Notes: generated from the sequence alone by a model not told the origin. A stretch of DNA of 64,000 bases from Parcubacteria group bacterium (GCA_016188785.1 JACPHD010000020.1:3306-67305); one strand, 5' to 3'; shown: positions 5,718 through 44,234, counted from the first letter of the stretch. A program made the numbers and translations.

Positions 5718-5727
5718 ATAATTATTT

Positions 5728-5903: not shown

Positions 5904-5915
5904 AAGATTGAAAAT

Positions 5916-11051: not shown

Positions 11052-12488
11052 ATGGATTTTAAAAAAATAAAAAAAATATATTTAATCGGCGTTAAAGGCG
11101 TGGGCATGACCATGCTGGGGCAATATCTGGCCGCCCAAGGCGCGCAGGTAAGCGGTTCGGATGGGCCGGAAAAATACATGACTGACGCGGCGCTGAAAAA
11201 TTCCGGCATAAAAATTATTGAGCATTTTAATGCGGCTAATATACCTAAGGACGTTGATTTAGTTATTTATTCAACCGCTTATAATGCCGAAACTAACGTT
11301 GAAGTGGCCGTGGCTTTGTCTGGAAAAATAAAAACGCTTACTTACGCCCAGGCTCTGGGCGAAGTGTTTAACCAGAAATACGGTCTGGCCGTGGTTGGTT
11401 CGCATGGCAAAACCACGACCACGGCCTGGTTAGGCTATGTTATGAAAATGGCCGAGCTTGAACCCAGTGTTATGGTAGGCGCCTCTGTACCGCAATTTAA
11501 CGGCTGCGCTTTAACGGGTGAGTCTGATTATTTATTGATTGAAGCGGATGAATATCAAAACAAACTTAAATATTACGAGCCCAAAGCCGTAATTTTAACT
11601 AATATTGATTATGATCATCCTGATTTTTTTTCCACCGCGGAAGATTATAAAAATGTTTTTCTAGAATTTATAAAAAAAATTCCGGTTAAAGGATTTTTAG
11701 TCGCGAATTTTGACGATCCGCTAATTAGAAAAATCGCCAGAGTGAATTGCCGCGGCCAAGTTATAACTTATGCTCTTAACGAAGCGGCCGATTATGTGGC
11801 TTATGATATTAAAAGCGACGGGCAGAGGCAGTATTTTAAAGTAAAATTAGGGGCAGGAGATGAAGATAATCCCCCCTACCCCCCTTTATCAAGGGGGGAT
11901 GAGCTGGGTGATTTTTCTATTCGGCTCTGTGGTCGGCATAATATTTATAATGCTTTGGCCGTGATTGCCGCTAGCGTTGAGCTGGGCATTGAGCTTTTTA
12001 AAATCAGAAAATATTTAGAAGAATTTTCCGGCGCGGCCAGAAGAATGCAGGTTTTAGGCGAATTCAAGGGCGCGCTGGTAATTGACGATTATGCCCATCA
12101 CCCCACAGAAATAAAAGCTACTCTGGAAGCGCTGCGACAGAAATATGGCGGCCGGAAATTAGTCGTGGCTTTTCATCCGCATACTTTCAGCCGCACTAAA
12201 GCTTTGTTTAATAATTTTGCCCAAAGTTTCAGCCAGGCCGATGAACTGATTATTATTGACATTTACGGTTCGGCGCGAGAAAAACAAGGCGGGGTGAGTA
12301 GTTTGGAATTGACGAGAGAAATAAGAATCAGGAATCAGGAATCAGGAATCAGGCAAACTGTGGATCATATTCCAACGCTGGCTGAATGTGAAGAATATTT
12401 ACGGCGAAAAGCCAAGAGAGATGATATTATTGTGTTAATGGGCGCCGGGGATATATTTAGGGTAGGAAATAATTTATTGAGCAAATAA
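11052..12488 (+). CDS. murC: UDP-N-acetylmuramate--L-alanine ligase, carrying two in-frame repeat insertions
   Basis: 478 aa. GVKGVGMTMLG, GSHGKTTTT P-loop, DYDHPD, GRHNIYNALA and DDYAHHPTEI motifs. Insertions at 11871-11899 and 12326-12353. Confidence 0.9.
   Translation: MDFKKIKKIYLIGVKGVGMTMLGQYLAAQGAQVSGSDGPEKYMTDAALKNSGIKIIEHFNAANIPKDVDLVIYSTAYNAETNVEVAVALSGKIKTLTYAQALGEVFNQKYGLAVVGSHGKTTTTAWLGYVMKMAELEPSVMVGASVPQFNGCALTGESDYLLIEADEYQNKLKYYEPKAVILTNIDYDHPDFFSTAEDYKNVFLEFIKKIPVKGFLVANFDDPLIRKIARVNCRGQVITYALNEAADYVAYDIKSDGQRQYFKVKLGAGDEDNPPYPPLSRGDELGDFSIRLCGRHNIYNALAVIAASVELGIELFKIRKYLEEFSGAARRMQVLGEFKGALVIDDYAHHPTEIKATLEALRQKYGGRKLVVAFHPHTFSRTKALFNNFAQSFSQADELIIIDIYGSAREKQGGVSSLELTREIRIRNQESGIRQTVDHIPTLAECEEYLRRKAKRDDIIVLMGAGDIFRVGNNLLSK
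11871..11899. repeat. C/G-run hairpin element (CCCCCCTACCCCCCTTTATCAAGGGGGG) in-frame inside murC
   Basis: Read directly. It translates as PPYPPLSRG within an otherwise MurC-like region. Confidence 0.7.
12326..12353. repeat. tandem heptamer AATCAGG x4 inside murC
   Basis: Four perfect AATCAGG copies, translated as RIRNQESGIR. Confidence 0.9.
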
Positions 12489-16976: not shown

Positions 16977-16989
16977 GGTTTTATATGGA

Positions 16990-17050
16990 CCCCGTTAGAT
17001 AAAATATAAGTTTAACGGCGGTCATAAATATATGAAGATATCTAACGGGG
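16990..17050. repeat. CCCCGTTAGA...TCTAACGGGG hairpin element, copy 1 (overlaps the hrcA start)
   Basis: Arms CCCCGTTAGAT / ATCTAACGGGG with a 39-nt interior. The annotated hrcA ATG (17032) lies inside it. Confidence 0.8.
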
Positions 17051-17745
17051 TGGATAAACGCAAGGAATTGATACTGAAAACCATTATTAAAGAGCATATT
17101 AAAACCGCTTTGCCGGTCGGCTCAGAAGGCTTAGTTGATAAGTATAATTTAGACATTTCTTCGGCCACGGTCAGAAACGAAATGGCCGAACTGGAACAAT
17201 CCGGCTATATTGCCCAGCCGCACACTTCAGCCGGCCGCATACCTACGGAAAAGGCTTATAATTTCTACTTAGAAAATTTAAGCGAAAAAAATTTAAGCCA
17301 GGCCGAGGTTAAGCAGTTTGAGAAGTTATTGGCTAAAAAAAATGAAATCAGTTTTAAGCAGGCGGCTAAAGATATGGCGAAAATTTCTGACAACGCGGTT
17401 TTTTGGGCCTTTCATAAGCATAATCTTTATTACACCGGCATTTCTAATCTCCTGCATCAGCCGGAGTTTTCCCAAACCGGTTTGATCTATGATATTTCCG
17501 AAGTGATTGACCGGGTTGATGAAATTATCGGGCAGATTTTTAATGATTTGAAGTTCGGGCCGCAAATTATGCTGGGTTCAAAAAATCCGTTTAGCCCGCA
17601 TTGCGGCGCGGTTTTAGCCAAGTATCGGCTTAATGATAATATCGGCTTAGTCGGCATTTTAGGCCCGGTCAGGATGAATTATGAAAAAAATTTGGCCTTG
17701 ATAAAATTTATAAATAATATATTAATGGACCCCGTTAGAAGTTAA
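17032..17745 (+). CDS. hrcA: heat-inducible transcription repressor HrcA (short form)
   Basis: 237 aa. N-terminal wHTH with PVGSEGL...SSATVRNEMAELEQSGYIAQPHTSAGRIPTEKAY. A CIRCE operator lies upstream. Both termini overlap repeat elements. Confidence 0.85.
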   Translation: MKISNGVDKRKELILKTIIKEHIKTALPVGSEGLVDKYNLDISSATVRNEMAELEQSGYIAQPHTSAGRIPTEKAYNFYLENLSEKNLSQAEVKQFEKLLAKKNEISFKQAAKDMAKISDNAVFWAFHKHNLYYTGISNLLHQPEFSQTGLIYDISEVIDRVDEIIGQIFNDLKFGPQIMLGSKNPFSPHCGAVLAKYRLNDNIGLVGILGPVRMNYEKNLALIKFINNILMDPVRS

Positions 17746-17808
17746 GATTTTAACGAGTAATACGATAAGTATTTTAATTATAAACTTGCCTGCTGACTTC
17801 TAACGGGG
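17730..17808. repeat. CCCCGTTAGA...TCTAACGGGG hairpin element, copy 2 (overlaps the hrcA stop)
   Basis: Arms CCCCGTTAGAAG / CTTCTAACGGGG. The preceding ATGGACCCCGTTAGA is identical to the sequence at 16985-16999. Confidence 0.8.
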
Positions 17809-17823
17809 CGGGAAAATAATATT

Positions 17824-18762
17824 ATGACGGAAGAAAAAGAGATTAATAATTTTGGTTGTAAGTACGCTATTAGCGGCGCCAGCGCGTTTATTTTTAATGA
17901 GCAAGGCAAATTATTTTTAACCAGATCGCCGAAATGGAATAATTTATGGGTGGTCCATGGCGGCAAAGTTGAATTTGGCGAGAGTTTAGAGGAGGCTTTA
18001 AAAAGGGAAATTAAAGAAGAAACCAATTTATCTATAAGAGATATCAGATATTTTATAACAGTAGAATTAAATAGAACCGAAGCGAGGCCTGATCTGCATA
18101 TGGTGGTGAATGAATATATCGCGCTAACCAGCGATAGCGAGGTAAAATTAAATAATGAACATAGCGAATTTGATTGGCGTACGCCTGAAGACTGGCTTAA
18201 AGAAAAAGATTTATATCCTAATGTCAGAGAGGCAATTGAATATTATTTAAATGAATTTTTACCTAAACAAGACTGTGAAAATTTATATAAGCGCGCTTTA
18301 GCCGATTATCAAAATTTATTAAAACAAACGGCTAAAGAAAAAATGCAATTCGCGGCTTACGCCAATGAGCAGATGTTAAGAGAAATTTTGCCGGTGTATG
18401 ATCATTTAAAATTAGCCATGGAGCATCATACCGCGTCCGCAACGCCTTGCCACGCCTGCCTTGCAAGCAAGGCATTGCGGGCAGGCTTGCGAGACGGGCG
18501 GGACGGCGAGTCAGCCGACGACTGGCTTAAAGGCGTAGAGTATGTGGTTAAGCAATTTAAAGATGTTTTGGAAAAAAGCGGCATTGAAGAGATAAAAATT
18601 GAAGATAAAAAATTTGACCATAATTTAATGGAGGCGTTAAATAGCGAAGAAACCGATGACCAAAATCTTGACGGCCAAGTGGCCAGACAGATTAAAGCCG
18701 GCTATAAGCTGAACGGGAAAATTATTGAGCCGGTTAAGGTGGTGGTATATAAGTTGAAATAA
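17824..18762 (+). CDS. grpE: NUDIX hydrolase domain fused to nucleotide exchange factor GrpE
   Basis: 312-aa continuous ORF. The N-terminal half carries a NUDIX box, GGKVEFGESLEEALKREIKEETNL. The C-terminal half is GrpE-like (LREILPVYDHLKLA...GYKLNGKIIEPVKVVV). A GC-rich palindrome is inserted in-frame at ~18431-18510. Confidence 0.8.
   Translation: MTEEKEINNFGCKYAISGASAFIFNEQGKLFLTRSPKWNNLWVVHGGKVEFGESLEEALKREIKEETNLSIRDIRYFITVELNRTEARPDLHMVVNEYIALTSDSEVKLNNEHSEFDWRTPEDWLKEKDLYPNVREAIEYYLNEFLPKQDCENLYKRALADYQNLLKQTAKEKMQFAAYANEQMLREILPVYDHLKLAMEHHTASATPCHACLASKALRAGLRDGRDGESADDWLKGVEYVVKQFKDVLEKSGIEEIKIEDKKFDHNLMEALNSEETDDQNLDGQVARQIKAGYKLNGKIIEPVKVVVYKLK
18431..18510. repeat. GC-rich palindromic element in-frame inside grpE
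   Basis: CCGCGTCCGCAACGCCTTGCCACGCCTGCCTTGCAAGCAAGGCATTGCGGGCAGGCTTGCGAGACGGGCGGGACGGCG. GC content is far above that of the flanking gene. It is related to the CGCAAGC/GCTTGCG family. Confidence 0.7.
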
Positions 18763-18876
18763 TTTTCAATTTTCAATGATCAATTTTCAATGAATGACCA
18801 ATTATCAAATTTTCAATTGAAAATTATAATATTGGAAATTGTTTGAAAATTGGAAATTGATAATTGAAAATTGAAC
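18763..18876. repeat. AT-rich heptamer-tiled palindrome (TTTTCAA/TTGAAAA words) after grpE
   Basis: Symmetric about TTTTCAATTGAAAA. The same TTTTCAA tiling occurs in-frame inside miaB. Confidence 0.8.
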
Positions 18877-18952
18877 AAAGATTAAATAATAATTAAATTT
18901 ATTTCCGCGGTTAATTCTGGCAAACGGAATTAACGCGGTGGAGGAAAAAAAT

Positions 18953-19381: not shown

Positions 19382-19406
19382 AAGTTAGAAGTAATAAAAT
19401 TCATCT

Positions 19407-19690
19407 GTCATTGCGAGGAGCCCGCATCTGCGGGAGATGAAGCAATATTTTTATTTGTCATTCCGGCCTCCGAGCCGGAATCCAGGATTCAGTGGCACAG
19501 ACATCTTATTTTATTATAACCTTAGCAAACCGAACTGCCTACGGACTTATCATGGATTCCCGCTTTCGCGGGAATGACAAAAAGAAAGTAGTCGCTCGCC
19601 ATGACAATTACCTTTTGTCATTCCCGAAGCCGCAGGCTGTCGGGAATCCATGGGTGGGCGGTAGGGATGTTTTTATTGCGAGGACGCGAG
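19407..19690. repeat. cluster of GTCATTGCG/GTCATTCC...GGAATGAC TIR-type repeats
   Basis: Contains GTCATTGCGAGGAGCCCGCATCTGCGGGA. It also holds a full unit, GTCATTCCGGCCTCCGAGCCGGAATCCAGG...ACCGAACTGCCTACGG...GGATTCCCGCTTTCGCGGGAATGAC, followed by GTCATTCCCGAAGCCGCAGGCTGTCGGGAATCCA. Confidence 0.85.
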
Positions 19691-19737
19691 TTAGTTAATA
19701 AGAAAAAAAATACAACATCAAAATAATAATTTATAGT

Positions 19738-20082: not shown

Positions 20083-20090
20083 CTTAACTT

Positions 20091-20290
20091 GTCATTGCGG
20101 CGCGCTTAAGCCTGGATTACCCCCGCAGATGCGGGGCGGGAATGACAGAAAAAAAGACCGGAATAACAAAGAAAAAATAATTAACAAATAATAATTAATT
20201 CGTTTTTGTGAAAAGTTGTGGTGATAAAGCAAGCTCTAAATAAATATTATGTTTGTGAGATTGCTTCGTCGCTTCGCTCCTCGCAATGAC
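20091..20290. repeat. cluster of GTCATTGCG/GGAATGAC and GAGATTGCTTCG...CTCGCAATGAC repeats
   Basis: GTCATTGCGGCGCG...CCCCCGCAGATGCGGGGCGGGAATGAC (20091-20146) and GTGAGATTGCTTCGTCGCTTCGCTCCTCGCAATGAC (20255-20290). Confidence 0.85.
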
Positions 20291-20301
20291 AAAGAATAAA
20301 T

Positions 20302-22263: not shown

Positions 22264-22626
22264 ATGAAAGATAATATAATAAAGACAAAAAGCTATAATT
22301 TTGCCATAAGAATTGTTAATTTATATAAATATTTGACTGTAAATAAAAGAGAATATATATTATCAAAACAAATTTTAAGAAGCGGTACTTCAATCGGCGC
22401 TAATGTGGAAGAGGCGATAGGCGGACAATCAGAAAAAGATTTTGTTTCAAAATTATCAATGGCGTATAAAGAAGCTAGGGAAACCAGATATTGGATAAAT
22501 CTATTAGTTGATACTTATATTTTAGAAAAAAATTTGTCTCTTTCTCTTTTAAATGATTGTGAAGAAATATGCAAAATAATTGGCAGAATACAAAAAACTA
22601 CTAAAGATAAAATTCGTAATTCGTAA
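22264..22626 (+). CDS. four-helix-bundle protein (23S rRNA intervening-sequence protein / Avd-like family)
   Basis: 120 aa. SKQILRSGTSIGANVEEA...DFVSKLSMAYKEARETRYWINLL is the family signature. The gene is flanked by inverted heptamer-tiled repeats at 22231-22263 and 22610-22652. Confidence 0.9.
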   Translation: MKDNIIKTKSYNFAIRIVNLYKYLTVNKREYILSKQILRSGTSIGANVEEAIGGQSEKDFVSKLSMAYKEARETRYWINLLVDTYILEKNLSLSLLNDCEEICKIIGRIQKTTKDKIRNS

Positions 22627-22652: not shown

Positions 22653-23759
22653 ATGTCTAAAGACTATTACAATATACTCGGCGTGGACAAGAACGCTTCA
22701 CCGGACGAAATTAAAAAAGCTTTTCGTAAGCTGGCGCATGAGCATCATCCGGATAAAAAGAGCGGCGATGAAGCTAAATTCAAGGAGCTTAATCAAGCTT
22801 ATCAGATTTTAAGCGATCCTAAAAAACGAGCCCAATACGATCAATTCGGCTCGGATTTCGGAGAAGCTCGAGCCGGTGGTGGCCAGGGTTTTTCCGGTTT
22901 TAGTGATTTTACCGGCGGGTTTAACATCAATATGGATGATCTGGGCGATATTTTCGGCGGGCTGGGCGATGTCTTTAATTTTTCCGGTCAGGGCGGTTCT
23001 CGCGGCCGGCGGTCCAGGCGCGGCAATGATATTCAGGCGCTTTTGGCCATTGATTTTAATGAAGCGGTTTTTGGCGCGGAAAAGGAAATCAGTTTAAAAA
23101 AAACCGTGAAATGCTCCAGGTGCCAGGGCGAAGGGCGAGAACCGGGCACAGAGGTTATTACTTGTAAAACCTGCGGCGGCCAAGGGCGCGTCACTAGAGT
23201 TCAGCGGACAATTTTAGGCAATATGCAAGTGCAAATGACCTGCGAGGCTTGCCATGGCGAGGGTAAAATATTTAAAGAAAAATGTTCAGCTTGCCGCGGC
23301 GCCGGCTTGGCCCAGCAAATCGTTAATTTAAAAATTAAAATTCCGGCCGGCATTGATAATAATGAAACCATAAGATTATCCGGCCAGGGCGAAGCCGCGC
23401 CCAAAGGCGCTTCGGCCGGCGATCTGTATTTAAAAATAAGAGTTAATGCTGACCGCCGTTTTGAGCGCGACGGCGTTAATATAAAATCTTGGGCGGAAAT
23501 CAGCTTTTCCCAGGCCGCTTTAGGCGATAAAATTGAAGTAGTGACGGTTGACGGGCCGGTTGATTTAAAAATTCCCGAAGGCACGCAGTCGGGCAAAATT
23601 TTTATTTTGCGCGGCAAGGGCGTGCCTTATTTAAACGGCCGCGGCGCTTTCGGCAGGACTCAAGCTAAGCGCGGCGATCATTTGGTTGAGGTGATTGTTA
23701 AAACGCCGGCCGGATTGTCAAAGAAGCAGAAAGAATTATTGAAAGAGTCTGGCCTATGA
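22653..23759 (+). CDS. dnaJ: molecular chaperone DnaJ
   Basis: Start moved to the ATG at 22653 (MSKDYYNILGV). J-domain HPD motif, a G/F region, and four CxxCxGxG zinc-finger repeats. Confidence 0.95.
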   Translation: MSKDYYNILGVDKNASPDEIKKAFRKLAHEHHPDKKSGDEAKFKELNQAYQILSDPKKRAQYDQFGSDFGEARAGGGQGFSGFSDFTGGFNINMDDLGDIFGGLGDVFNFSGQGGSRGRRSRRGNDIQALLAIDFNEAVFGAEKEISLKKTVKCSRCQGEGREPGTEVITCKTCGGQGRVTRVQRTILGNMQVQMTCEACHGEGKIFKEKCSACRGAGLAQQIVNLKIKIPAGIDNNETIRLSGQGEAAPKGASAGDLYLKIRVNADRRFERDGVNIKSWAEISFSQAALGDKIEVVTVDGPVDLKIPEGTQSGKIFILRGKGVPYLNGRGAFGRTQAKRGDHLVEVIVKTPAGLSKKQKELLKESGL

Positions 23760-25195
23760 AAACTTACCATATAATCACCATCGGCTGCCAGATGAATAAG
23801 TCTGACAGCGAAAGACTGGCCGGCCGGCTGGAACAAAATGGCTATAAAAAGACTGATAATAAGTATCAAGCCGATTTAATTGTGGTTAATACTTGCGGCG
23901 TGCGCCAATCGGCCGAGGATAGAATTTACGGTTTGATTCCCGGGATTAAAAAAGCCAATCAAAAAGCCAAGATAGTTTTAACCGGCTGTCTGGCGGCTAG
24001 GCAAGATGTAAAAAATAGATTGAAAGATTATGTTGATGAGTGGCTGCCAATCAGTGAAATTTTCAATTTTCAATTTTCAATTTTCAAACAAACTCTAATT
24101 TTCAATTTTCAAGCAAATGCGAAATGCAAAAACGACTATTTAAAAATCATTCCTAAATACGAATCTGAATTTTCCGCTTTTGTGCCCATCGGCAATGGTT
24201 GTAATAATTTTTGTTCCTATTGCGTCGTGCCCTACGCGCGCGGCCGGGAAGTTTATCGGCCGGTTGAAGATATATTGGCTGAAGTAAAAGAGCTGGTTAA
24301 AAAAAATTATAAAGAAATTATTTTGATCGCGCAAAATGTCAATTCATATAAATCCCAAATTCCAAATCCCAATAACCAAACAAATTCCAAATCCCAAATT
24401 AAAAATTCAAAAAATAAAATAATAGATTTTTCAGACTTGCTTAAGATGGTCAACGGCATTCAGGGTGATTTTTGGCTTAGGTTTATGACTAGCCATCCTA
24501 AAGATATGTCGGATAAGTTGATTGAAACTATGGTTGACTGCGAAAAAGTCTGCCATCAGGTTCATTTGCCGGCGCAGGCCGGCGATGATGAGGTGCTTGC
24601 TAGCATGAATAGAAAGTATAAAATAGCCGATTATGTTGAATTGGTTGGGAAGATAAGAAGTATTTTAAATGACCAAATCCCAATAACCAATAACCAAACA
24701 AATTCTAAATTCCAAGTCCCAAATTCCAAACAAAGTTTGTGGAAACAACCAGTTTCAATTACTACTGATCTTATAGTCGGCTTTCCGACTGAAACTAAAA
24801 GGCGGTTTGCTAATACAGCCAAACTGATGCGGCAAATAAAATTTGATATGGCTTATATCGCTAAATACAGCGCGCGGCCGGAAACCGCGGCCGCGAAAAT
24901 GCAAGATAATGTGTCTACGGTTGAAAAGAAAAGGCGCGAGCAAATCTTAATGAAAATTTTAAGAAAAACAGCGCTGGAAAATAATAAAAAATATCTGGGC
25001 AAAATTATGAAGGTGCTGGTGGAAGGGGAAAGTAAAAGCGAAGAGTGGGCAGGGCGGACGGCAACCAATAAAAATGTCAAATTTCCATCCGCCAGCTGGC
25101 GGACAAATGACAAAAATAATTTAATAGGGAAGTTTGTAAATGTTAAAATTATTAAGGCGCAAGATTTTGGCCTGGCCGGGGAGTTAATCAGTTAA
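23756..25195 (+). CDS. miaB: tRNA-i6A37 methylthiotransferase MiaB with three in-frame AT-rich repeat insertions
   Basis: 479 aa. TIGCQMNKSDSE N-terminus, radical SAM motif CNNFCSYCVVPYARG, and a TRAM-like C-terminus. Insertions at 24058-24113, 24350-24420 and 24672-24732. Confidence 0.9.
   Translation: MKTYHIITIGCQMNKSDSERLAGRLEQNGYKKTDNKYQADLIVVNTCGVRQSAEDRIYGLIPGIKKANQKAKIVLTGCLAARQDVKNRLKDYVDEWLPISEIFNFQFSIFKQTLIFNFQANAKCKNDYLKIIPKYESEFSAFVPIGNGCNNFCSYCVVPYARGREVYRPVEDILAEVKELVKKNYKEIILIAQNVNSYKSQIPNPNNQTNSKSQIKNSKNKIIDFSDLLKMVNGIQGDFWLRFMTSHPKDMSDKLIETMVDCEKVCHQVHLPAQAGDDEVLASMNRKYKIADYVELVGKIRSILNDQIPITNNQTNSKFQVPNSKQSLWKQPVSITTDLIVGFPTETKRRFANTAKLMRQIKFDMAYIAKYSARPETAAAKMQDNVSTVEKKRREQILMKILRKTALENNKKYLGKIMKVLVEGESKSEEWAGRTATNKNVKFPSASWRTNDKNNLIGKFVNVKIIKAQDFGLAGELIS
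24058..24113. repeat. heptamer tiling ATTTTCA x4+ inside miaB
   Basis: AAATTTTCAATTTTCAATTTTCAATTTTCAAAC...AATTTTCAATTTTCAAGC, translated as EIFNFQFSIFKQTLIFNFQ. Confidence 0.85.
24350..24420. repeat. AT-rich CCAAAT/AACCAAA tiling inside miaB
   Basis: AAATCCCAAATTCCAAATCCCAATAACCAAACAAATTCCAAATCCCAAATTAAAAATTC. The same word set occurs in the intergenic elements at 35472-35644 and 42859-42985. Confidence 0.8.
24672..24732. repeat. AT-rich CCAAAT/AACCAAA tiling inside miaB (second copy)
   Basis: CCAAATCCCAATAACCAATAACCAAACAAATTCTAAATTCCAAGTCCCAAATTCCAAAC. Confidence 0.8.
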
Positions 25196-25201
25196 TAATT
25201 T

Positions 25202-26176
25202 ATGCAGAATAATAAAAAAATTATTGTGATACTTGGTCCGACGGCCAGCGGCAAAACTAAGTTGGCGGTTGACTTAGCCCTGAAATTTAATGGCGAGATT
25301 GTAAGCGCCGATTCCAGGCAGGTATATAAGGGGATGGATGTTGGCACCGGTAAAGACCTTAAAGACTATCGTCTTAAATTTCCAATTTCCAATTTCCAAT
25401 TTCCAATTAAATTCAAAATTCAAAATTCAAAATTTATTGAAATTCCTTATCACTTAATTGATGTAGTAAATCCAAAGACGCAATTTGACTTAGCCAAGTA
25501 TCAGAAAATGGCTTTTTCGGCCATTGACGATATTTTAAAACGCGGTAAATTGCCAATTTTAGCCGGCGGTTCAGGGCTTTATTTACAAGCTGTGGTAGAT
25601 AATTATAAATTGTCTGATATAAAAAGTGATTTAATTTTAAGAAAAAAACTAGAGAAGTATAATGCTCAAGAATTGTTTGAAAAATTAGAAAAGCTGGCGC
25701 CGAAGCTGGCGGCTAAACTTAATCAAAGCGATAAAAATAATAAGCGCCGGCTAGTCAGATATTTAGAAATTTTAGCGCAAGACAAAAATTTTAAAAGCCG
25801 TCGCGGTCAAAGAAAATATCAGGCCTTGCTGGTCGGCCTTAAATTCGGCAAAGATATTTTAAAGCAGAGAATTTTTAAAAGATTATTAGCAAGAGTTAAA
25901 GAGCAAAATATGCTCGGCGAAGTGGAAAATTTGCGTAACCAGGGCTTAAGCTGGAAAAGGCTGGAAGATTTCGGTCTGGAATATAAATTTATTGCCTGGT
26001 ATTTGCGGGGCAAATTGCCATACGACCAGATGATAGAAAAATTAAACGCGGCTATTTATCAGTTTGCTAAACGTCAGCTTGCCTGGTTTAAGCGCTGGGA
26101 AAAGCAGGGCGCGAACATAAATTGGCTGAAAGACAGTAAAAAAATTGAAAAGTTGGTTAGAGAATTTTTAAAATAA
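25202..26176 (+). CDS. miaA: tRNA dimethylallyltransferase MiaA with an in-frame repeat insertion
   Basis: 324 aa. GPTASGKT P-loop, SADSRQVYKGMDVGTGK, and HHLID-like YHLIDV. Heptamer insertion at 25376-25436. Confidence 0.9.
   Translation: MQNNKKIIVILGPTASGKTKLAVDLALKFNGEIVSADSRQVYKGMDVGTGKDLKDYRLKFPISNFQFPIKFKIQNSKFIEIPYHLIDVVNPKTQFDLAKYQKMAFSAIDDILKRGKLPILAGGSGLYLQAVVDNYKLSDIKSDLILRKKLEKYNAQELFEKLEKLAPKLAAKLNQSDKNNKRRLVRYLEILAQDKNFKSRRGQRKYQALLVGLKFGKDILKQRIFKRLLARVKEQNMLGEVENLRNQGLSWKRLEDFGLEYKFIAWYLRGKLPYDQMIEKLNAAIYQFAKRQLAWFKRWEKQGANINWLKDSKKIEKLVREFLK
25376..25436. repeat. heptamer tiling AATTTCC x3-4 then AAATTCA x3 inside miaA
   Basis: Read directly. It translates as LKFPISNFQFPIKFKIQNSKF. 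Confidence 0.85.
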
Positions 26177-30915: not shown

Positions 30916-31914
30916 TTAATTTTTCTTATACAGTTTATCTTTTACAAAATTTTTCCAATTATCAGTTGTTAAGCCGCCGGTTGGTGTCAATTCGGCTTTA
31001 ATCGGCGGGTGCGGGTCGTAATTTTCTAATTTAACATGTTCCGGCCTAAAATCATCAATTTCTTTGACGCTTTCATCAAGGACGACGCGGGGAAACTGTT
31101 TCGGCTTCCTGGTTAATTGCTCTTTCACCTGCTCAATATGATTGGAATATATATGAGCGTCGCCGAAAGTATGGATGAATTCGCCCGCCCTGTTGCCCGT
31201 AACTTTGGCCAGTATTATGGCCAAGAGAGCGTAGCTGGCGATATTAAACGGCACGCCTAAAAACATGTCAGCCGTCCTTTGGTATAAATGTAAAGACAAT
31301 TTGCCATTTTTGACATTGCATTGATACATATTATGGCAGATAGGAAAACGAGAGGCTTCTTCAGGCTTAGCCATTTGATATAAATATTCAGGATTCCAGG
31401 AATTTACTAAGGTGTTATGAGCGTCAGGGTCTTTTTTTAATTCGTTAACCAGCCACCCTACTTGATCAATACCGCGGCCGTCTTTAGCCGGCCAGCGCCG
31501 CCACATCTGGCCATAAATATGTTTTAGCTCGCCGTATTTTTTTGCATAATCATCGTCCCCGGCGATTTTTTTTATGAACTCTTCTTGCGTCAATTCCGGC
31601 TCCAAGCCTTTTTCCATCAGCTCGCGGTAGATTTTATAAGGATAATCGTCCCAGATATGAACGTTATTATCCACTAAAAATTTTATATTGGATTGGCCGG
31701 ATAAAAACCAATATAATTCATATAGCACGCCTTTCCAATAAATCTTTTTGGTGGTTAACAGGGGAAAGTCCTGATTCAGATCAAAGCGGATTTGCCGGCC
31801 GAAGACGCTATAAGTAATGGCGCCGGTTCCCATATCTTCCTGTTTAACGCCATTATCTAAAATGTCCTGAAGCAAATTTAAATATTGATATTCGGGGTGA
31901 GTTTGGTTTGGCAT
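30916..31914 (-). CDS. thyA: thymidylate synthase ThyA (long form)
   Basis: 332 aa. YQYLNLLQDIL, and FPICHNMYQCNV containing the catalytic Cys. The DAHIY motif is also present. Confidence 0.95.
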   Translation of the reverse strand: MPNQTHPEYQYLNLLQDILDNGVKQEDMGTGAITYSVFGRQIRFDLNQDFPLLTTKKIYWKGVLYELYWFLSGQSNIKFLVDNNVHIWDDYPYKIYRELMEKGLEPELTQEEFIKKIAGDDDYAKKYGELKHIYGQMWRRWPAKDGRGIDQVGWLVNELKKDPDAHNTLVNSWNPEYLYQMAKPEEASRFPICHNMYQCNVKNGKLSLHLYQRTADMFLGVPFNIASYALLAIILAKVTGNRAGEFIHTFGDAHIYSNHIEQVKEQLTRKPKQFPRVVLDESVKEIDDFRPEHVKLENYDPHPPIKAELTPTGGLTTDNWKNFVKDKLYKKN

Positions 31915-35471: not shown

Positions 35472-35644
35472 AATGTAAAGTTAAAATTACAAATAACAAA
35501 TTCCAAACAATATCTAAATTCAAATTTACTAATATCTAGAATTATATTGTTAGTATTTATAATTTAGAATTTGTTTGTGATTTGGCGTTTGGTTATTGGA
35601 ATTTTTAATGATATTTTTATTTTTAACTGTAATTTTACATTTTG
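35472..35644. repeat. long AT-rich tiled palindrome between rplK and rplA
   Basis: AATGTAAAGTTAAAATTACAAATAACAAATTCCAAACAATATCTAAATTC pairs with ...TTAACTGTAATTTTACATTTT. The 50-nt word TTACAAATAACAAATTYCAAACAATMTCTAAATTC recurs at 42917 and, inverted, at 37201. Confidence 0.8.
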
Positions 35645-37704: not shown

Positions 37705-37708
37705 TTGT

Positions 37709-37841
37709 GTCATTGCGAGCGACCGGAGGGAGAGAAGCAATCTCACGAATTAGGAGTTTAAACTAAAGTGGAAAATTTTATAGCAATTCGTCGTACGTGA
37801 GATTGCTTCGTCCCCCGCAGATGCGGGGTCCTCGCAATGAC
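37709..37841. mobile_element. MITE-like element with ~35-nt TIRs (GTCATTGCGAG..GAAGCAATCTCAC / GTGAGATTGCTTC..CTCGCAATGAC)
   Basis: 133 nt. The TIRs carry nested hairpins (CCCCGCAGATGCGGGG). The interior GGAGTTTAAACTAAAGTGGAAAATTTTATAGCAA is the reverse complement of the interior of the 41381-41505 copy. Confidence 0.75.
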
Positions 37842-37853
37842 ATACAATAAATA

Positions 37854-40610
37854 ATGCCCGAAGAAGCTAAGCCAAAAGACAAAACGCAATTTATAACTTG
37901 CCCGACTTGCGGCGGCGCCGGTAAAGCCGGCCCTGGTTCAGCTTGCAAAAATTGTTCAGGCGCGGGCGTGATCGCTTTTTTAGACGGGCGGTTTTTTTAT
38001 TGGAATTTGCCTTTAACCGTTCCGGCCATAAAGTTAAGGCATTTAAAAAAAGGTTTAAATTTAATTTTAAATTTATCCGCCTATATTATGGGGCTGATCG
38101 GACTAATGGCTCTGACTTATTGGGTTTGGGCGGCCGGCGAGAAGACGGAGACTTTAGCGGCCTTTTCTTTTTGGCGCGTAAAAAGTCCGTTGATTTTAAC
38201 TTTTTGGTTAAGCGCTTTGTCCGATATGTTCGTCGTCTATCGCTTAAGCCGGGAAGAAGCGGCTAAGCAGAAAATCATCAAACTTAAATATCAGGAAACG
38301 GCCGAATCTAATTTTCCTGACAATTGGTCTGAATTTAACAAAGTAAAAAGCAAATATAAAATCGAAGTTTCGGGCGGCTTCAGCCCGGCCGCGCTTAAGG
38401 CGGTTGAACAAGCTTTTAATTTAGCCGATCGCGCCAGGCAGGGCCGGGTCAGGCCGGTTCATTTGTTTTTCAGTTTATTTAAGTACCCGGCGGTAGCGGC
38501 GGTTTTTTCCCGCCTGAATATTGATTCGACCAAACTAATCGCTAAATTAAAAAATCAATTATTGGCCATAGGGGCCGGGACCGAGTCGACCGAAATATCC
38601 GCGGAAATTAAAGAAATTTTTCTGGCGGCCTATATCAGCGCCTTAAATTACGGGCAAAAAAAAGTTGAGCCGGTTAATTTTATTTTGCCGATTTTAGCCA
38701 GGGATAAAAATTTAAGTGAACTGCTTTACGATTTGGAAATTGACCATGATAAGATAAATAACGTTATCCAATGGTTTTTAATAAATGAGCGTTTGCTTGA
38801 TAATTACCGCCGCTACCGCCAGGCGGCCCGTTTTAAGCCAGGCCAAGCCATGGATCGCGCCTATACGGCCGTGGCCACGCCAATCTTAAATCATTTTTCT
38901 TATGATTTGACCTTGGCCGCTAAATGGGGCCGGCTGGAATTATCCGTGGGCCGGGAAGATGAAATCAAAGCCGTTTTTCAGGCGCTGGAAAGCGGTAAAA
39001 GCGGAGCGCTTCTTGCCGGGCCGCCGGGCGTGGGTAAAAATATGGTTATCTGGCAAATCGCGCGAGACATGGTAGAAGAAGATGTGCCAAAAATGCTAAC
39101 CGATAAACGACTTTTAGAATTAGACATAACGCGCCTTTTAAGCGGGGCTTCGGCGGCCGAGGCCGAACAAAGGCTTTTGGTTATAATTGATGAAGTGGTC
39201 CGCGCCGGCAATATTATTTTATATATTAACAATCTGGAAAATTTAACCGGCATTACGGCTGGCAACGAAGCCAGTCTGGAGCTGTCGGAAGTTTTAGCCA
39301 GCGCCCTGGGACGGCATAATCTTATTTGTTTAGCCAGCGTCAGCCAGGATAATTATGCCAAATATATTGAAAATAAGCCTTTGGGTAATATTATGGCTAA
39401 AGTGGAAGTTAGCGAGCCGGATAATAATTTAGCCATTCAAATGCTGGAAAGTAAAATCGGTTTTTATGAAGCCAAATTTAAAGTTTATTTTACTTACGAT
39501 AGTTTAGCTAAGGCCGTGGAATTATCGGCTAAATATATTTATGATAAATACCTGCCGGCCAAAGCGGTTGATATTTTAGAAGCGATCGCGGTTAAAGTTT
39601 CTCAAGATAAAGGACTAAATAGTTTAGTCGGCGTTGAGGACGTGGCGGCCATCGTCAGTCAAAAGACAAAAATTCCTTTGACCAAGATTACTCAGACCGA
39701 AAGCGAAGTTTTACTTAATTTAGAGGAAAAAATGCATAGCCGCATGATTGGCCAGGCCGAAGCCGTAACCATGGTGGCGGCCAGTTTAAGGCGGGCCCGG
39801 ACCGAACTTAGGGAAACTAACAGGCCGATCGCCAGTTTTTTATTTTTAGGTCCGACCGGCGTGGGTAAAACCGAATTGGCTAAAACCGTGGCTGAAGTTT
39901 ATTTCGGCAACGAGGATTATATGACGCGCTTGGACATGAGCGAATACCAGCGGCAGGAGTCGTTGGAAAAAATGATCGGTTCGCCGGACGACGTTTCCGG
40001 TTATTTAACCGAGGCCGTGCGTCAGGCGCCGTTTTCTTTAATTCTCTTGGACGAACTGGAAAAAGCGCATCCGGACATCTTAAATTTATTTTTGCAGGTT
40101 ATGGATGATGGCCGTTTGACCGACGGGCAGGGGCGGACGATCAATTTTACTAATTGCATTATTATCGCGACTTCCAATATCGGCGCGGTTTATATTCAGG
40201 AGCAAATTAAAGCCGGCGCCGCGATTGAACAAATTAAGCAATCGCTAATTAACGACCAGCTAAATAAATATTTAAGGCCGGAGCTGATAAATCGTTTTGA
40301 CGGCGTGGTGGTGTTTAAGCCTTTGGCTATGGAGGAAGTGGAAAAAATTACCGAGTTGATGTTAAATAAAGTTCGACGGCTGTTAGAAGCTAAAGGCATT
40401 GGCTTAAAATACGGCCAGCTGGCGGTTAAAAAAATAGCTGAACTGGGTTTTGATCCGAAATTCGGCGCGCGGCCTTTGCGCCGTTTAATCCAGGAAAAAA
40501 TTGAAAACCAAATCGCGGACAAGGTTTTGGCCGGCGAGCTTAAAAGGCGGGATACGGTCGTGATTGACGGCCAGGCGCTCGTGAGCGTGGAAAAGGGCAG
40601 AAAGCTCTAG
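37854..40610 (+). CDS. membrane-anchored Clp/Hsp100-family AAA+ ATPase with an N-terminal double CxxCxGxG zinc ribbon and a degenerate first AAA module
   Basis: 918 aa. CPTCGGAG and CKNCSGAG, two TM segments, and two Clp_N-like repeats. D1 has Walker A GPPGVGKN and Walker B position ILYINNLE (no D/E). D2 is intact, with GPTGVGKTELAK and LILLDELEKAH. Confidence 0.8.
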   Translation: MPEEAKPKDKTQFITCPTCGGAGKAGPGSACKNCSGAGVIAFLDGRFFYWNLPLTVPAIKLRHLKKGLNLILNLSAYIMGLIGLMALTYWVWAAGEKTETLAAFSFWRVKSPLILTFWLSALSDMFVVYRLSREEAAKQKIIKLKYQETAESNFPDNWSEFNKVKSKYKIEVSGGFSPAALKAVEQAFNLADRARQGRVRPVHLFFSLFKYPAVAAVFSRLNIDSTKLIAKLKNQLLAIGAGTESTEISAEIKEIFLAAYISALNYGQKKVEPVNFILPILARDKNLSELLYDLEIDHDKINNVIQWFLINERLLDNYRRYRQAARFKPGQAMDRAYTAVATPILNHFSYDLTLAAKWGRLELSVGREDEIKAVFQALESGKSGALLAGPPGVGKNMVIWQIARDMVEEDVPKMLTDKRLLELDITRLLSGASAAEAEQRLLVIIDEVVRAGNIILYINNLENLTGITAGNEASLELSEVLASALGRHNLICLASVSQDNYAKYIENKPLGNIMAKVEVSEPDNNLAIQMLESKIGFYEAKFKVYFTYDSLAKAVELSAKYIYDKYLPAKAVDILEAIAVKVSQDKGLNSLVGVEDVAAIVSQKTKIPLTKITQTESEVLLNLEEKMHSRMIGQAEAVTMVAASLRRARTELRETNRPIASFLFLGPTGVGKTELAKTVAEVYFGNEDYMTRLDMSEYQRQESLEKMIGSPDDVSGYLTEAVRQAPFSLILLDELEKAHPDILNLFLQVMDDGRLTDGQGRTINFTNCIIIATSNIGAVYIQEQIKAGAAIEQIKQSLINDQLNKYLRPELINRFDGVVVFKPLAMEEVEKITELMLNKVRRLLEAKGIGLKYGQLAVKKIAELGFDPKFGARPLRRLIQEKIENQIADKVLAGELKRRDTVVIDGQALVSVEKGRKL

Positions 40611-40647
40611 AAAATTACGAATTAGAAATTACGAATTACGAATTTTT
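40611..40647. repeat. heptamer tiling (ATTACGA/ATTAGAA) after the clp gene
   Basis: AAAATTACGAATTAGAAATTACGAATTACGAATTTTT. Confidence 0.75.
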
Positions 40648-40650
40648 CTT

Positions 40651-40849
40651 GTCATTCCCGCGCAGGCGGGAATCCAGGAGGGAGTGGTAGGAAGATTATT
40701 ATATATATGAAGATGGCCAGTATATAGAAATTGAACGCTATATAATATAAGATAATCCGGCTTGGCGTGATTTGTTTGTTAATATGCTATAAATAACAGT
40801 TGTACGTTTAATCCCTGGATTCCCGATAGCCTGCGGCTTCGGGAATGAC
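40651..40849. mobile_element. MITE-like element with hairpin-containing TIRs (GTCATTCCCGCGCAGGCGGGAATCCAGG / CCTGGATTCCCG..CGGGAATGAC)
   Basis: 199 nt. The left and right ends are reverse complements, and each end folds on itself. The interior is AT-rich and non-coding. Confidence 0.75.
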
Positions 40850-40940
40850 AAATAAATGACAAATAAGAGAAAAGGACGGCCTCATATAAATTTTAGAGGA
40901 GAAAATTTATATAAAGTCGTCCTTGGTTAAAGACTTGGGC

Positions 40941-41505: not shown

Positions 41506-41516
41506 AAAAAAATAAT

Positions 41517-44224: not shown

Positions 44225-44234
44225 AATTAATTTT

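Follow-up and report, generated by a model that had tools for sequence, protein, structure and literature searches.

Heptamer repeat arrays, probably passengers filtered by selection, lie in frame within conserved enzymes of a Parcubacteria genome

Conserved enzymes of a Parcubacteria (Patescibacteria/CPR) MAG carry short blocks of 7-nt repeats within their reading frames, and these blocks are probably heptamer-periodic repeat DNA that was inserted or expanded in permissive loops, is translated as a passenger filtered by selection, and is prone to slippage. The window, by which we mean the whole 64,000-nt stretch of DNA that was analysed, contains the six blocks described in an earlier note (three in miaB and one each in miaA, mtaB and murC), and all of them are AT-rich, tiled with a period of 7, in frame and free of stop codons within intact ORFs. 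Exact runs with a period of 7 numbered 17 in the window versus 0.7 in shuffled sequence, and the other periods scanned gave 0-7 exact runs each. TRF reported ~30 period-7 arrays built from more than 15 distinct units, and in the period-7 scan of the window 8 of 14 arrays lay wholly inside an ORF. All four host genes score above the NCBIfam curated cut-offs, and alignments to orthologues and to the solved structures of MiaB (7mjv) and MiaA (2qgn) confirmed that the blocks are situated between conserved segments. The miaB gene holds four inserts, the last of which is of a different, GC-rich type:

23756-25195, + strand: miaB, tRNA i6A37 methylthiotransferase, 479 aa, intact (TIGR01574, 367.8 bits; cut-off 355.3)
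24058-24121, + strand: miaB site 1, heptamer block found with TRF (pLDDT <50 at residues 112-125); tiled block at 24058-24112
24356-24415, + strand: miaB site 2, heptamer-periodic insert of 60 nt (QIPNPNNQTNSKSQIKNSKN) found with nhmmer; tiled block at 24350-24424
24674-24751, + strand: miaB site 3, heptamer-periodic insert of 78 nt (QIPITNNQTNSKFQVPNSKQSLWKQP); tiled block at 24672-24732
25089-25102, + strand: miaB site 4, 14-nt GC palindrome CCGCCAGCTGGCGG in a TRAM-domain loop, net +12 nt

The MiaB protein is 100% identical to a Parcubacteria MAG protein, and its protein cluster has one member. Site 1 lies in the linker from the N-terminal domain to the radical-SAM domain; it is made up of (AATTTTC)4.3, ACAAACTCT and (AATTTTC)2.3 and encodes the peptide EIFNFQFSIFKQTLIFNFQANA. 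Site 2 is located 3' of the NVNSYKS strand and shares with site 3 a common core of ~36 nt (CCAATAACCAAACAAATTCYAAAT), while the 14-mer of site 4 is also nested in the site 2 insert of the relative L086. By codon alignment with the empty allele of L087, the four inserts add 39, 60, 78 and 12 nt; the 39 nt are likewise absent from L081 and the 78 nt from L085 and L086. The earlier note had proposed a check of insert lengths modulo 3, and the 39, 60 and 78 nt of the heptamer-type inserts are divisible by 3 but by neither 7 nor 21. The 'empty' alleles of site 1 retain two heptamers (GAAATTACGAATTTTCAAAC), and site 2 is filled at the same place and to the same length in L081, L083 and L085 and with 39 nt in L082. 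Compared with 7mjv, site 2 adds 13 aa and site 3 ~26 aa. The AlphaFold (AF2) model of MiaB has a mean pLDDT of 82.6 and a TM-score of 0.77-0.83 against the MiaB-RNA complexes (0.77/0.82 for 7mjy/7mjv), and its pLDDT falls below 50 only at residues 112-125, 214-216, 310-324 (site 3) and 448-452 (site 4). These four segments coincide exactly with the insert sites. MiaB retains its core fold and its catalytic cysteines, with C47, C78, C149, C153 and C156 (the radical-SAM CxxxCxxC motif and the N-terminal cluster) invariant in alignment A1.

Two further tRNA-modification genes carry blocks of the same kind:

25202-26176, + strand: miaA, tRNA dimethylallyltransferase, 324 aa, intact (TIGR00174, 186.2 bits; cut-off 148.65)
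25370-25438, + strand: miaA heptamer block found with TRF, (AATTTCC)4.6 plus (AAATTCA)3.7, peptide RLKFPISNFQFPIKFKIQNSKFI; tiled block at 25377-25434
47578-48948, + strand: mtaB, tRNA ms2t6A37 methylthiotransferase, 456 aa, intact (TIGR01579, 376.3 bits; cut-off 357.05)
47885-47975, + strand: mtaB heptamer block found with TRF, in the linker between the N-domain and the radical-SAM domain, peptide RIMNYESGIRNKIQNPNNKNNKIIINS; tiled block at 47888-47975
48180-48279, + strand: nested GC-rich element of MITE-like type, in frame in mtaB (TGTCATTCCGG...CCCGCAATGACA, inner hairpins), following GIHLGLYGK

The two arrays of the miaA block form an inverted pair (28 nt, 79% complementary) and add ~21 aa relative to 2qgn; no inverted repeats were found in the heptamer blocks of miaB sites 1-3 or mtaB. 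In relatives, the miaA site is empty (L081 and L083) or holds (AAATCCC)+(AAATTCA) (L086), (AAGTCGA)4.5 (L085) or a GC-rich element (L084), and MiaA has a single hot spot with four different contents across lineages. The mtaB heptamer block occupies the position paralogous to miaB site 1, where mtaB orthologues have peptides of the FQFSIF, YELRITNK or FQIPISNK type or much shorter linkers. The GC-rich element of mtaB occupies the position paralogous to miaB site 2, and this position is empty in P0122, P0127, P0135, P0140 and P0141.

Five of the six blocks are lineage-specific insertions, located at a small set of permissive sites that are used repeatedly and that close relatives have empty; this agrees with the proposal of insertion into loops or linkers. 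The sixth block, in murC, does not fit that proposal:

11052-12488, + strand: murC, UDP-N-acetylmuramate--L-alanine ligase, 478 aa, intact (TIGR01082, 451 bits; cut-off 335.1)
11871-11898, + strand: murC in-frame GC hairpin (CCCCCCTACCCCCCTTTATCAAGGGGGG), in a segment 13 aa longer than in 6cau
12325-12353, + strand: murC perfect array (GAATCAG)4.1 (TRF, 100% matches), peptide RIRNQESGIRQ

The murC array was rejected as a net insertion because it aligns to the residues IRLRGQVEPIL of the MurC structure 6cau, in a segment only 4 aa longer. In MiaB, MiaA and MtaB, the hot spots are reused across the clade, and they also take GC-rich palindromic micro-elements, nested within heptamer arrays; at three to four fixed sites, MiaB orthologues that are 55-74% identical are either empty or filled with an insert of the heptamer or GC type. 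In effect, the inserts mark out naturally where the host enzymes permit insertion, and they would explain part of the length variation of CPR proteins along with low-complexity segments that confuse annotation, orthologue alignment and structure prediction.

What, if anything, do the inserts do for the proteins that carry them? One possibility is that the Lys/Asn/Gln/Phe-rich loops are selected as functional modules, for example to add contacts with tRNA or to bind partners in CPR cells, which would be in line with the reuse of the same sites over wide divergence, the Lys-rich nature of many inserts (e.g., KFKIQNSK) and the binding of tRNA by the host enzymes. We regard such a role as very improbable. 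Among alleles that are 97-99% identical, some have and others lack a 13-aa site 2 insert, or a GC palindrome of 21 nt within an (AATTACG)n array, and the presence of MiaB inserts varies even among the three closest relatives (73-74% identity). The repeats are perfect at the level of DNA whereas the peptides differ, which means that conservation applies to the 7-nt period rather than to the residues. Moreover, the same sites take unrelated inserts (GC elements and tRNA-like sequences), model confidence in the inserts is low, and unrelated proteins share the same array peptide, with membrane proteins and a signal peptide among the examples.

Heptamer-periodic elements also occur between the genes of the window:

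18763-18877, no strand assigned: intergenic inverted pair of AATTTTC / TTGAAAA heptamers, 54-nt arms, 78% complementary
35484-35605, no strand assigned: intergenic inverted pair with heptamer-periodic arms, the left arm with the 27-mer AAATTACAAATAACAAATTCCAAACAA
37127-37255, no strand assigned: intergenic inverted pair of the same family as the 35484 element, 51-nt arms, 73% complementary
42911-42973, + strand: intergenic single arm of the same family as the 35484 element, with the 27-mer at one mismatch

The coding inserts appear, from shared sequence, to belong to the same heptamer-periodic family as these elements, with a profile link that is weak for most blocks. An nhmmer profile matched 10 sites in the window as well as orthologous inserts, but with a profile built from intergenic copies only, miaB site 3 (13.7 bits, E=0.003) was the sole block clearly above noise, and site 2 (9.4 bits) and miaA (8.2 bits) scored close to the best of 20 shuffles (8.6 bits). 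The description of the coding blocks as indistinguishable from the intergenic elements was therefore too strong by profile scores, and the family link stands through an exact match: the 27-mer at 35484-35510, which consists of four different heptamers and has a chance expectation of 0 in the window, is identical to sequence in the miaB site 2 insert of L088/L089, another species. Copies of the 27-mer with 1-2 mismatches are found at 42913 and 37227, miaB sites 2 and 3 have a core in common with the intergenic copies, and the 18763 element has the same unit as miaB site 1. The repeats thus form a dispersed multi-copy family, as do elements of the RPE/MITE type.

An alternative is that the arrays have a purely local origin, in which a chance 7-nt seed was expanded in place by slipped-strand events and the likeness to intergenic elements reflects composition-driven convergence. 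Such an origin would account for the unrelated units at the MiaA site in different lineages (AATTTCC, AAATCCC and AAGTCGA), the two heptamers left in empty alleles of miaB site 1, the murC array that replaces residues and adds none, and the single-unit indels that were seen, and a heptamer bias of polymerase slippage has been proposed (PMC4692102). It does not readily account for a 27-mer of four heptamers that is identical in intergenic DNA here and in a miaB insert of another species, the ~36-nt core common to miaB sites 2 and 3, the recurrence of composite two-array architectures, or the (AATTTTC) arrays that have identical ends and lengths sharply peaked at 30-32 nt in more than 20 unrelated genes. 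We consider a purely local origin unlikely, while granting it some weight.

Outside contingency genes, one would not expect coding DNA to contain tandem repeats with a unit length indivisible by 3, and here they are tolerated in core enzymes. In a metagenome sample of 83 (AATTTTC)n arrays, 26 were in frame within long ORFs none was convincingly frame-breaking and none was antisense within a gene, a ratio that bears out the suggestion of the earlier note that retention of the frame reflects selection. Metagenome proteins contain ~4.3 units of the (AATTTTC) array, with a length peak at 30-32 nt, and identical ends and the peptide [K]FSIFNFQFS recur in more than 20 unrelated protein families; all 20 of the 20 hosts checked belong to real Pfam families. 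Units were stop-free on the sense strand in 15 of 17 exact coding arrays (antisense, 5 of 17), and intergenic units were stop-free in 41% of cases (42% expected). From these frame and stop statistics, the inserts are predicted to be translated as low-complexity surface loops. The wider sample did not uphold a specific association with enzymes that modify A37, as in-frame arrays were also present in TsaD, ValRS, ArgRS, PheT, PurL (a Bacteroidota-like protein with an 18-aa net insertion), FolD and MurB, with further examples in MurG, KsgA, PilD, CobS and glycosyltransferases. The host list covers enzymes of tRNA modification, aminoacyl-tRNA synthetases, Mur enzymes, PurL and FolD, from CPR bacteria as well as from at least one Bacteroidota-like genome. 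One (AATTTTC)5 array, together with a GC hairpin, was seen in a 23S rRNA gene (L114), and the window contains an interrupted tRNA-like gene.

CPR rRNA genes carry insertions, and these, like the array in the 23S rRNA gene and the interrupted tRNA-like gene, could be taken as signs that the segments are cut out, prior to translation or afterwards, in the manner of introns or inteins, or that the affected genes are pseudogenes or assembly artefacts. We find this scarcely credible. Removal would leave frame, stop codons and orientation unconstrained, and all three constraints were observed; neither hairpin- nor splice-like structure was found in the blocks, and those of miaB and mtaB lack inverted repeats. 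Similar inserts at the same sites were recovered in independent assemblies from NCBI, JGI, ENA and Logan, and the genes retain catalytic motifs and have scores above the equivalog cut-offs.

In natural populations the arrays continue to gain or lose whole repeat units, and a frameshift can result. L090 and L091 differ over 3.4 kb by a single 7-nt unit (AAATTGG, 4 versus 5 units) and are otherwise identical, and the same holds for L088 and L089 over 5.2 kb with a single 32-nt repeat unit; in both pairs miaB is split. These changes were observed in genomes of relatives rather than in the window's own population. The earlier note had stated that its reading would fall if the host genes proved to be pseudogenes, with frameshifts in other population variants. 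This is borne out in part in relatives, where two near-identical variants have repeat-unit deletions that split miaB, but most alleles are intact, and the pseudogene interpretation was rejected. Repeat-linked split alleles amounted to only 2 in the ten MiaB clusters examined, and no in-frame variants of +/-3 units were found within these clusters. Arrays are also homogenised, as indicated by perfect arrays of different units at the orthologous miaA site (AATTTCC here, AAATCCC in L086). The origin and spread of the heptamers can be approached through genomes that are otherwise identical and differ in having filled, empty or frameshifted alleles.

A precedent for slippage within a gene is neuO of E. 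coli K1, in which an (AAGACTC)n array of 3-53 units in the coding sequence is phase-variable, full translation requires a copy number divisible by 3, and 65.6% of genomes are OFF (PMC13001214). As in neuO, the arrays described here are intra-ORF, have a unit that is not divisible by 3 and are read in all three frames to give a 7-residue peptide repeat, and slippage by one unit shifts the frame such that the full-length protein is made in one register only. Might the arrays of miaB, miaA and mtaB, then, be slippage switches that confer phase-variable A37 hypermodification (ms2i6A, ms2t6A) on CPR bacteria? We give this a slim chance, because miaB-splitting deletions occur in otherwise identical genomes and the arrays of the window are concentrated in A37 enzymes. 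If it is true, a clonal population would contain heritable, reversible subpopulations that differ in decoding fidelity, and contingency would act on the translation apparatus instead of on surface structures. The stronger claim, that the arrays are kept as adaptive contingency loci because slippage toggles the three genes and hence A37 hypermodification and decoding, has a slimmer chance still. In its favor are perfect arrays of a unit not divisible by 3 in coding sequence, natural frameshifted alleles one unit apart, and the A37-modifying role of 3 of the 4 heptamer-bearing genes in the window (nominal hypergeometric P ~5e-4, post hoc). Identical arrays, however, occur in the essential ValRS, ArgRS, PheT, MurB, MurC and FolD, where an OFF state would be lethal, and hot spots accept non-repetitive GC elements equally well. 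Neither the high frequency of OFF alleles nor the several in-frame length classes of neuO were seen: the metagenome sample gave a ratio of in-frame to broken arrays of 26:0, the arrays have no more than 4-5 units, almost every allele keeps the frame, and the hosts are housekeeping and often essential genes at many loci per genome.

Under the reading that we prefer, of translated passengers, small discrete elements of ~27-32 nt would be copied to new places, after which polymerase slippage in 7-nt steps would expand, contract and homogenise the arrays, and purifying selection would keep those copies that are a multiple of 3 nt, in a stop-free orientation and in tolerant loops. Bacteria have an excess of heptameric SSRs, which has been attributed, as a proposal, to polymerase slippage (PMC4692102). 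We infer the copying step only from sequences shared at non-homologous places, as neither mobility machinery nor terminal inverted repeats nor target-site duplications could be linked to the heptamer blocks, and filled and empty alleles showed no consistent flanking duplication. The inserts themselves most likely have no required function. Non-essential tRNA-modification genes would tolerate inserts and the occasional frameshift allele, which may be why such genes look enriched in the window.

Cyanobacteria reportedly have STRR heptanucleotide repeats with nested 'small dispersed repeats', and intergenic heptamer direct repeats (TAACTGA) with a proposed regulatory role are said to occur in Beggiatoaceae. 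The likeness to STRRs extends to head-to-tail 7-nt units, with many different ones per genome, frequent intergenic inverted pairs, whole-unit changes in length between close relatives, and GC-rich palindromes of 14-30 nt nested in arrays. STRRs and the heptameric SSRs known in Xanthomonas and Nostoc (PMC4692102) are described as intergenic, whereas many of the present arrays are intra-ORF, AT-rich, predicted to be translated in conserved enzymes and filtered for absence of stops, and the hosts are Patescibacteria (with one locus on a Bacteroidota-like contig) in place of cyanobacteria or Xanthomonas. Heptamer repeats and nested micro-palindromes, hitherto unexplained in cyanobacteria, are thereby linked to a second, very distant lineage. 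The Beggiatoaceae repeat is likewise a 7-nt direct repeat abundant across the genome of an uncultured lineage, but it has a single unit and is intergenic and untranslated. Rickettsia palindromic elements (RPEs) are a small dispersed family found in frame in unrelated housekeeping genes, where the host protein can accommodate them in its fold and function (PMC10969869), and in-frame MITEs are similar; the heptamer blocks resemble both in their dispersal among such genes and in keeping the frame and the host fold. RPEs are ~100-150 bp, palindromic and encode a conserved peptide, while the heptamer blocks are 30-80 nt of variable 7-nt units, mostly lack an inverted partner in genes, show no terminal inverted repeat or palindrome with target-site duplication, change by unit slippage and belong to a different phylum.

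The GC-rich elements of mtaB, tsaB, grpE and murC are nearer to RPEs and MITEs in behavior than the heptamer blocks are. Two of them lie outside the genes listed so far:

63702-63738, + strand: 29-nt palindrome CCCCGTTAGAAAAACCTTTTCTAACGGGG in tsaB (63495-63950; Pfam PF00814), flanked by direct TTCA
18436-18507, + strand: GC-rich palindromic insert of 72 nt (SATPCHACLASKALRAGLRDGRDG), in frame in the NUDIX-GrpE gene

All four A37-related genes of the window (miaA, miaB, mtaB and tsaB) bear repeat insertions, as had been noted, but that of tsaB is a GC-type palindrome, in frame within the GGSF..TALRIG segment, and not a heptamer block. In a syntenic survey of 14 gene families, heptamer-type indels were confined to MiaA and MiaB, a local bias that simple tolerance may not fully explain, and GC-type inserts were spread more widely. 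The insert in the NUDIX-GrpE gene is missing from the L082 and L087 orthologues and indicates that GC-type elements strike other genes too.

The six AT-rich blocks that an earlier note had placed in miaB, miaA, mtaB and murC are indeed tiled with 7-nt units, and all six are embedded free of stop codons within uninterrupted ORFs:

miaB, 24058-24112: (AATTTTC)4.3, a 9-nt spacer and (AATTTTC)2.3
miaB, 24350-24424: imperfect array of AAATYCC / CCAATAA type units
miaB, 24672-24732: imperfect array of AAATYCC / CCAATAA type units
miaA, 25377-25434: perfect (AATTTCC)4.6, then perfect (AAATTCA)3.7
mtaB, 47888-47975: heptamer-tiled block
murC, 12325-12353: (GAATCAG)4.1

The window holds 17 exact period-7 runs compared with 0.7 in shuffled sequence, and each of the other periods from 4 to 12 accounts for 0 to 7 exact runs. 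The host genes score above the NCBIfam curated cut-offs as MiaB, MiaA, MtaB and MurC, and the MiaB and MtaB of the window are 100% identical to proteins from a 'Parcubacteria group bacterium' MAG. Peptides coded across insert junctions, for example EIFNFQFSIFK, SQIPNPNNQTNSK and FPISNFQFPIK, are presumably translated, judging from the reading frames.

Alignment of 40 MiaB orthologues (55-74% identical) revealed variable content at three to four fixed positions:

site 1: after WLPIxEIxNF, in the linker that joins the N-terminal domain to the radical-SAM domain
site 2: after the NVNSYKS strand
site 3: after the KIRxxLN helix
site 4: in a loop of the TRAM domain

The sites are empty, filled with peptides of the FQFSIFNQF/KFQIxNSK/QIPNP type, or filled with Gly/Ala/Arg/Pro-rich peptides, and the three closest relatives of the window MiaB (73-74% identity) are unlike it at every insert site. 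Patterns from the MiaB alignment proved too generic in a genome-contig search, which gave two Patescibacteria loci among the matches listed, and so DNA of seven syntenic loci was retrieved through exact-protein look-ups for a codon alignment with the window. Relative to L087, a locus whose 416-aa MiaB is 71% identical to that of the window and is empty at these sites, the window miaB carries net inserts of +39, +60, +78 and +12 nt. The first three are all multiples of 3; insert lengths in multiples of 7 or 21 nt are ruled out by the same values. MiaA has a single hot spot, after GTGKDLxEY, that is empty in two syntenic loci (L081 and L083) and holds (AATTTCC)+(AAATTCA) in the window, (AAATCCC)+(AAATTCA) in L086, (AAGTCGA)4.5 in L085 and a GC-rich element in L084. 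The variable sites of MtaB (32 orthologues) are at positions paralogous to MiaB sites 1 and 2. An AlphaFold model of the window MiaB (mean pLDDT 82.6) has the MiaB-RNA complexes 7mjy and 7mjv as structural matches, with TM-scores of 0.77 when normalised to the query and 0.82-0.83 when normalised to the target, and the only segments with pLDDT below 50 are the four insert sites (residues 112-125, 214-216, 310-324 and 448-452). The suggestion that the blocks are insertions into loops is thus borne out by filled and empty orthologous sites for miaB, miaA and mtaB. It fails for murC, where the array aligns to existing residues in MurC 6cau and adds almost no length. The inserts are in frame, at permissive loops and lineage-specific.

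How closely the coding blocks resemble the intergenic tiled elements depends on the comparison. In the intergenic elements of the window, heptamer-periodic arms (22-54 nt, 73-91% complementary) are arranged as inverted pairs; the blocks in miaB and mtaB are single arms, and the miaA block retains two arms with 79% complementarity. MiaB sites 2 and 3 align without gaps to three intergenic copies around a core of the form ..CAAAT..AACAAAYTCYAAAT.., and a profile of these five copies also detects the orthologous inserts in L081-L086. An nhmmer profile built from intergenic copies only, which is the fairer test with the weaker outcome, scored miaB site 3 at 13.7 bits (E=0.003), miaB site 2 at 9.4 bits and miaA at 8.2 bits, and the best of 20 shuffles at 8.6 bits. 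Calling the two classes indistinguishable therefore overstates the case for most coding blocks, for which profile support is weak, but an exact shared string remains. The intergenic 27-mer AAATTACAAATAACAAATTCCAAACAA at 35484-35510, which recurs at 42913 and 37227 with 1-2 mismatches (none are expected by chance), has exactly the sequence of the miaB site 2 insert in L088 and L089, two loci from another Patescibacteria species. This direct identity is the strongest link between coding and intergenic copies. Since the 27-mer strings together four different heptamers, which is beyond single-unit slippage, it argues for the copying of a discrete small element. The coding blocks are akin to the intergenic family. 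Terminal inverted repeats and target-site duplications were looked for around the heptamer blocks and none were found. The 27-mer was absent from the viral contigs searched, and (AATTTTC)4 was present in 11 viral contigs.

Frameshifts in population variants, which the earlier note had set against its own reading, do occur in relatives, as split miaB genes are present within clusters of 90% identity. L090 and L091, a pair of loci from Candidatus Falkowbacteria, match base for base across 3.4 kb apart from one AAATTGG unit in the site 1 array (5 to 4), the loss of which leaves miaB as ORFs of 142 and 362 aa. The only difference between L088 and L089 over 5.2 kb is that one copy of a tandem 32-nt element at site 2, the element containing the 27-mer, has been lost, and here the products are ORFs of 223 and 218 aa. 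A third split miaB gene is broken away from any repeat, and a separate cluster of 97-99% identical MiaB proteins is polymorphic for a 13-aa insert at site 2. The arrays are thus unstable unit by unit, and perfect arrays of different units at orthologous sites imply that homogenisation continues. One possibility is that this instability serves adaptive phase variation, the reading-frame logic being that of neuO, the classical heptanucleotide switch within an ORF. This is unlikely, since essential genes carry the same arrays and OFF alleles are scarce here, whereas neuO is OFF in 65.6% of genomes (PMC13001214); the population signature of contingency loci is not matched by these arrays.

Selective removal of disruptive copies is indicated by a metagenome scan for (AATTTTC)4, which covered this one unit and returned at least 120 stretches; 83 arrays were analysed. 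Among the matches listed, 26 of the 83 lie in frame and in sense orientation inside long ORFs and another falls in a lipoprotein signal peptide; none is convincingly gene-breaking and none is antisense within a gene. If frame were irrelevant, two thirds would be expected out of frame. Two candidate frameshifts were discarded on inspection: locus L111 consists of two adjacent genes, with the array in the lipoprotein signal peptide, and L114 looks by eye like a 23S rRNA gene. In L114, positions 666-760 hold an (AATTTTC)5 array and, after it, a GC hairpin (GCGTTTCGCTCCGCGAAACGC); the adjoining 23S rRNA-like sequence (..CCCTAAGTTACGGGGTCAATTTGCCG..) makes this an apparent case of repeat insertion into an rRNA gene. 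An array of three or more heptamers is read in all three frames, and its unit must therefore contain no stop codon in any register; 15 of 17 exact coding arrays have such units in the sense direction, and 5 of 17 do in antisense. Intergenic units in the window are stop-free in 41% of cases compared with the 42% expected for AT-rich heptamers. The idea that insert length is under selection therefore stands, with orientation and unit sequence constrained as well. Filtering for frame, stops and orientation is strong.

The proposed association with tRNA-A37 modification is less specific than it seems in the window. Repeat inserts are present in miaA, miaB, mtaB and tsaB, which are all the A37 genes of the window because a Pfam scan of its ORFs found no others, and A37 enzymes account for three of the four heptamer-bearing genes. 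An unbiased comparison of 14 syntenic gene families found heptamer-type indels only in MiaB and MiaA and GC-type indels also in GrpE-NUDIX and GatB; DnaK, the penicillin-binding protein, HrcA, L1 and L11 had neither in this comparison. In metagenomes, the same arrays are in many unrelated hosts, which speaks against a specific tie. All 20 host proteins tested belong to real families, and 12 arrays lie within a single domain envelope. Hosts include TsaD, ValRS, ArgRS (twice), PheT, PurL, FolD, MurG, a Mur ligase, MurB, KsgA, prepilin peptidase (twice), CobS, O-antigen-ligase-like proteins and several glycosyltransferases. The PurL array lies on a Bacteroidota-like contig and falls within a net insertion of 18 aa when compared with a homologue of 67% identity. 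That (AATTTTC)4 arrays in metagenomes are mainly in miaB was also considered and ruled out: among the matches listed, one locus has miaB nearby, with the array just past the stop codon. That heptamer arrays cluster in miaA, miaB and mtaB in this genome is best explained by tolerant linkers together with dispensability. These three enzymes are dispensable in most bacteria, which would explain why miaB frameshift alleles are observable at all.

We infer a combination of element copying, slippage and selective removal. Small heptamer-periodic elements, putatively mobile, would be copied to new sites; slippage with a 7-nt step would expand, contract and homogenise the arrays; and selection would purge all but stop-free copies of 3n length in tolerant loops. 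The known systems closest in behaviour are Rickettsia palindromic elements (RPEs), cyanobacterial STRR heptamers and neuO. Cyanobacterial STRR heptamers carry nested small dispersed repeats, and the blocks described here differ from them in being, by all appearances, translated. Work related to STRR heptamers ascribed bacterial heptamer over-representation to the polymerase footprint (PMC4692102). RPEs are selfish DNA inserted in frame in housekeeping genes (PMC10969869), but the structural definition of MITEs or RPEs fails for the in-gene blocks because these have neither inverted termini nor target duplication. Full-text literature searches turned up no account of heptamer repeats, or of repeats inserted in frame, in Parcubacteria/Patescibacteria, and nothing relevant on the block peptide and DNA strings.

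A separate class of GC-rich palindromic inserts also lies in frame:

mtaB, 48180-48279: nested GC-rich MITE-like element of ~100 nt
murC, 11871-11898: C/G hairpin
miaB, 25089-25102: 14-nt palindrome CCGCCAGCTGGCGG
NUDIX-GrpE gene, 18436-18507: 72-nt GC-rich insert
tsaB, within the GGSF..TALRIG segment: 29-nt palindrome, TTCA-flanked

The mtaB element was flagged by a map of repeated 10-mers, a map too noisy in AT-rich DNA for listing inserts. The heptamer insert of L086 miaB holds the nested CCGCCAGCTGGCGG 14-mer and a second palindrome that is also in L086 gatB, and a 21-nt GC palindrome within an (AATTACG)n array distinguishes MtaB alleles of 98-99% identity. GC micro-palindromes thus nest within arrays. 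Inserts of another kind, tRNA-like and of ~80 aa, occur at both MiaB site 1 and site 3 in one species cluster. These in-frame inserts, in MiaB proteins of other Patescibacteria (P0100, P0263-P0274, P0043), share the motif ..VEVGGIEPPE..VTPTS..LYH, and the resemblance of this motif to translated tRNA-like (T-arm) sequence suggests a tRNA-derived repeat element. Nested GC-rich palindromic MITE-like families (TGTCATTGCGAGG..CCTCGCAATGACA, GTCATTCCCGC..GCGGGAATGAC and CTGGATTCC..) populate many intergenic spacers:

5718-5915, 19382-19737, 20083-20301, 37705-37853, 40640-40870,
41390-41510, 44160-44234, 49887-49990, 61357-61590, 63360-63450

The in-frame inserts of mtaB and the tsaB C-terminus derive from these families. 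A third small palindromic repeat family, with arms ACCCCGTTAGA / TCTAACGGGGT, is at both ends of the hrcA ORF (17032-17745; arms at ~16989-17051 and ~17729-17823) and within tsaB (63705-63735).

At 47341-47577, a tRNA-like sequence (5' GCCACCCTAGCTCAGTTGGTAGAGCAACGGTTTTG, 3' ..GTAAACCGTAGGTCGTCGGTCCGAATCCGACGGGTGGCTC) is interrupted by GC-rich palindromes and a complete tRNA-Thr(TGT) (47439-47511), the only tRNA that ARAGORN called in this interval; the interval resembles a tRNA gene divided by an insertion that carries another tRNA. Upstream of tRNA-Lys(TTT) (46106-46181) are a duplicated 5' tRNA fragment (TTTCGCGCTGTTA..) and a short ORF at ~45860-46090 assigned by eye as GIY-YIG-like (YTYILISIKDKKLYIGFTNDLSKRFLEHQNG), which suggests a homing-endonuclease-type insertion beside or in a tRNA gene at 45790-46182. 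Two MiaB homologues, P0080 (542 aa) and P0104 (759 aa), have added IPPT/IPT (MiaA) Pfam domains and are apparent MiaA-MiaB fusions or read-throughs of adjacent genes. The 961-aa ORF at 8-2893 had no Pfam match, and its region is atypical for the window (GC 0.48, GC skew 0.23, AT skew 0.33 over 1-2000). Thymidylate synthase (30916-31914) has 332 aa, of which residues 10-309 match a Pfam profile of 266 positions, and the 918-aa ClpB-like protein (37854-40610) has weak matches only across the first AAA region; additional in-frame inserts may be present in both. The dnaK-dnaJ spacer (22264-22626) is a variable insertion slot in a conserved chaperone operon, holding a different small gene in the window (a 120-aa ORF), in L082 (an ORF of 125 aa on the opposite strand) and in L087 (a gene resembling DUF559/MTES_1575 endonucleases).
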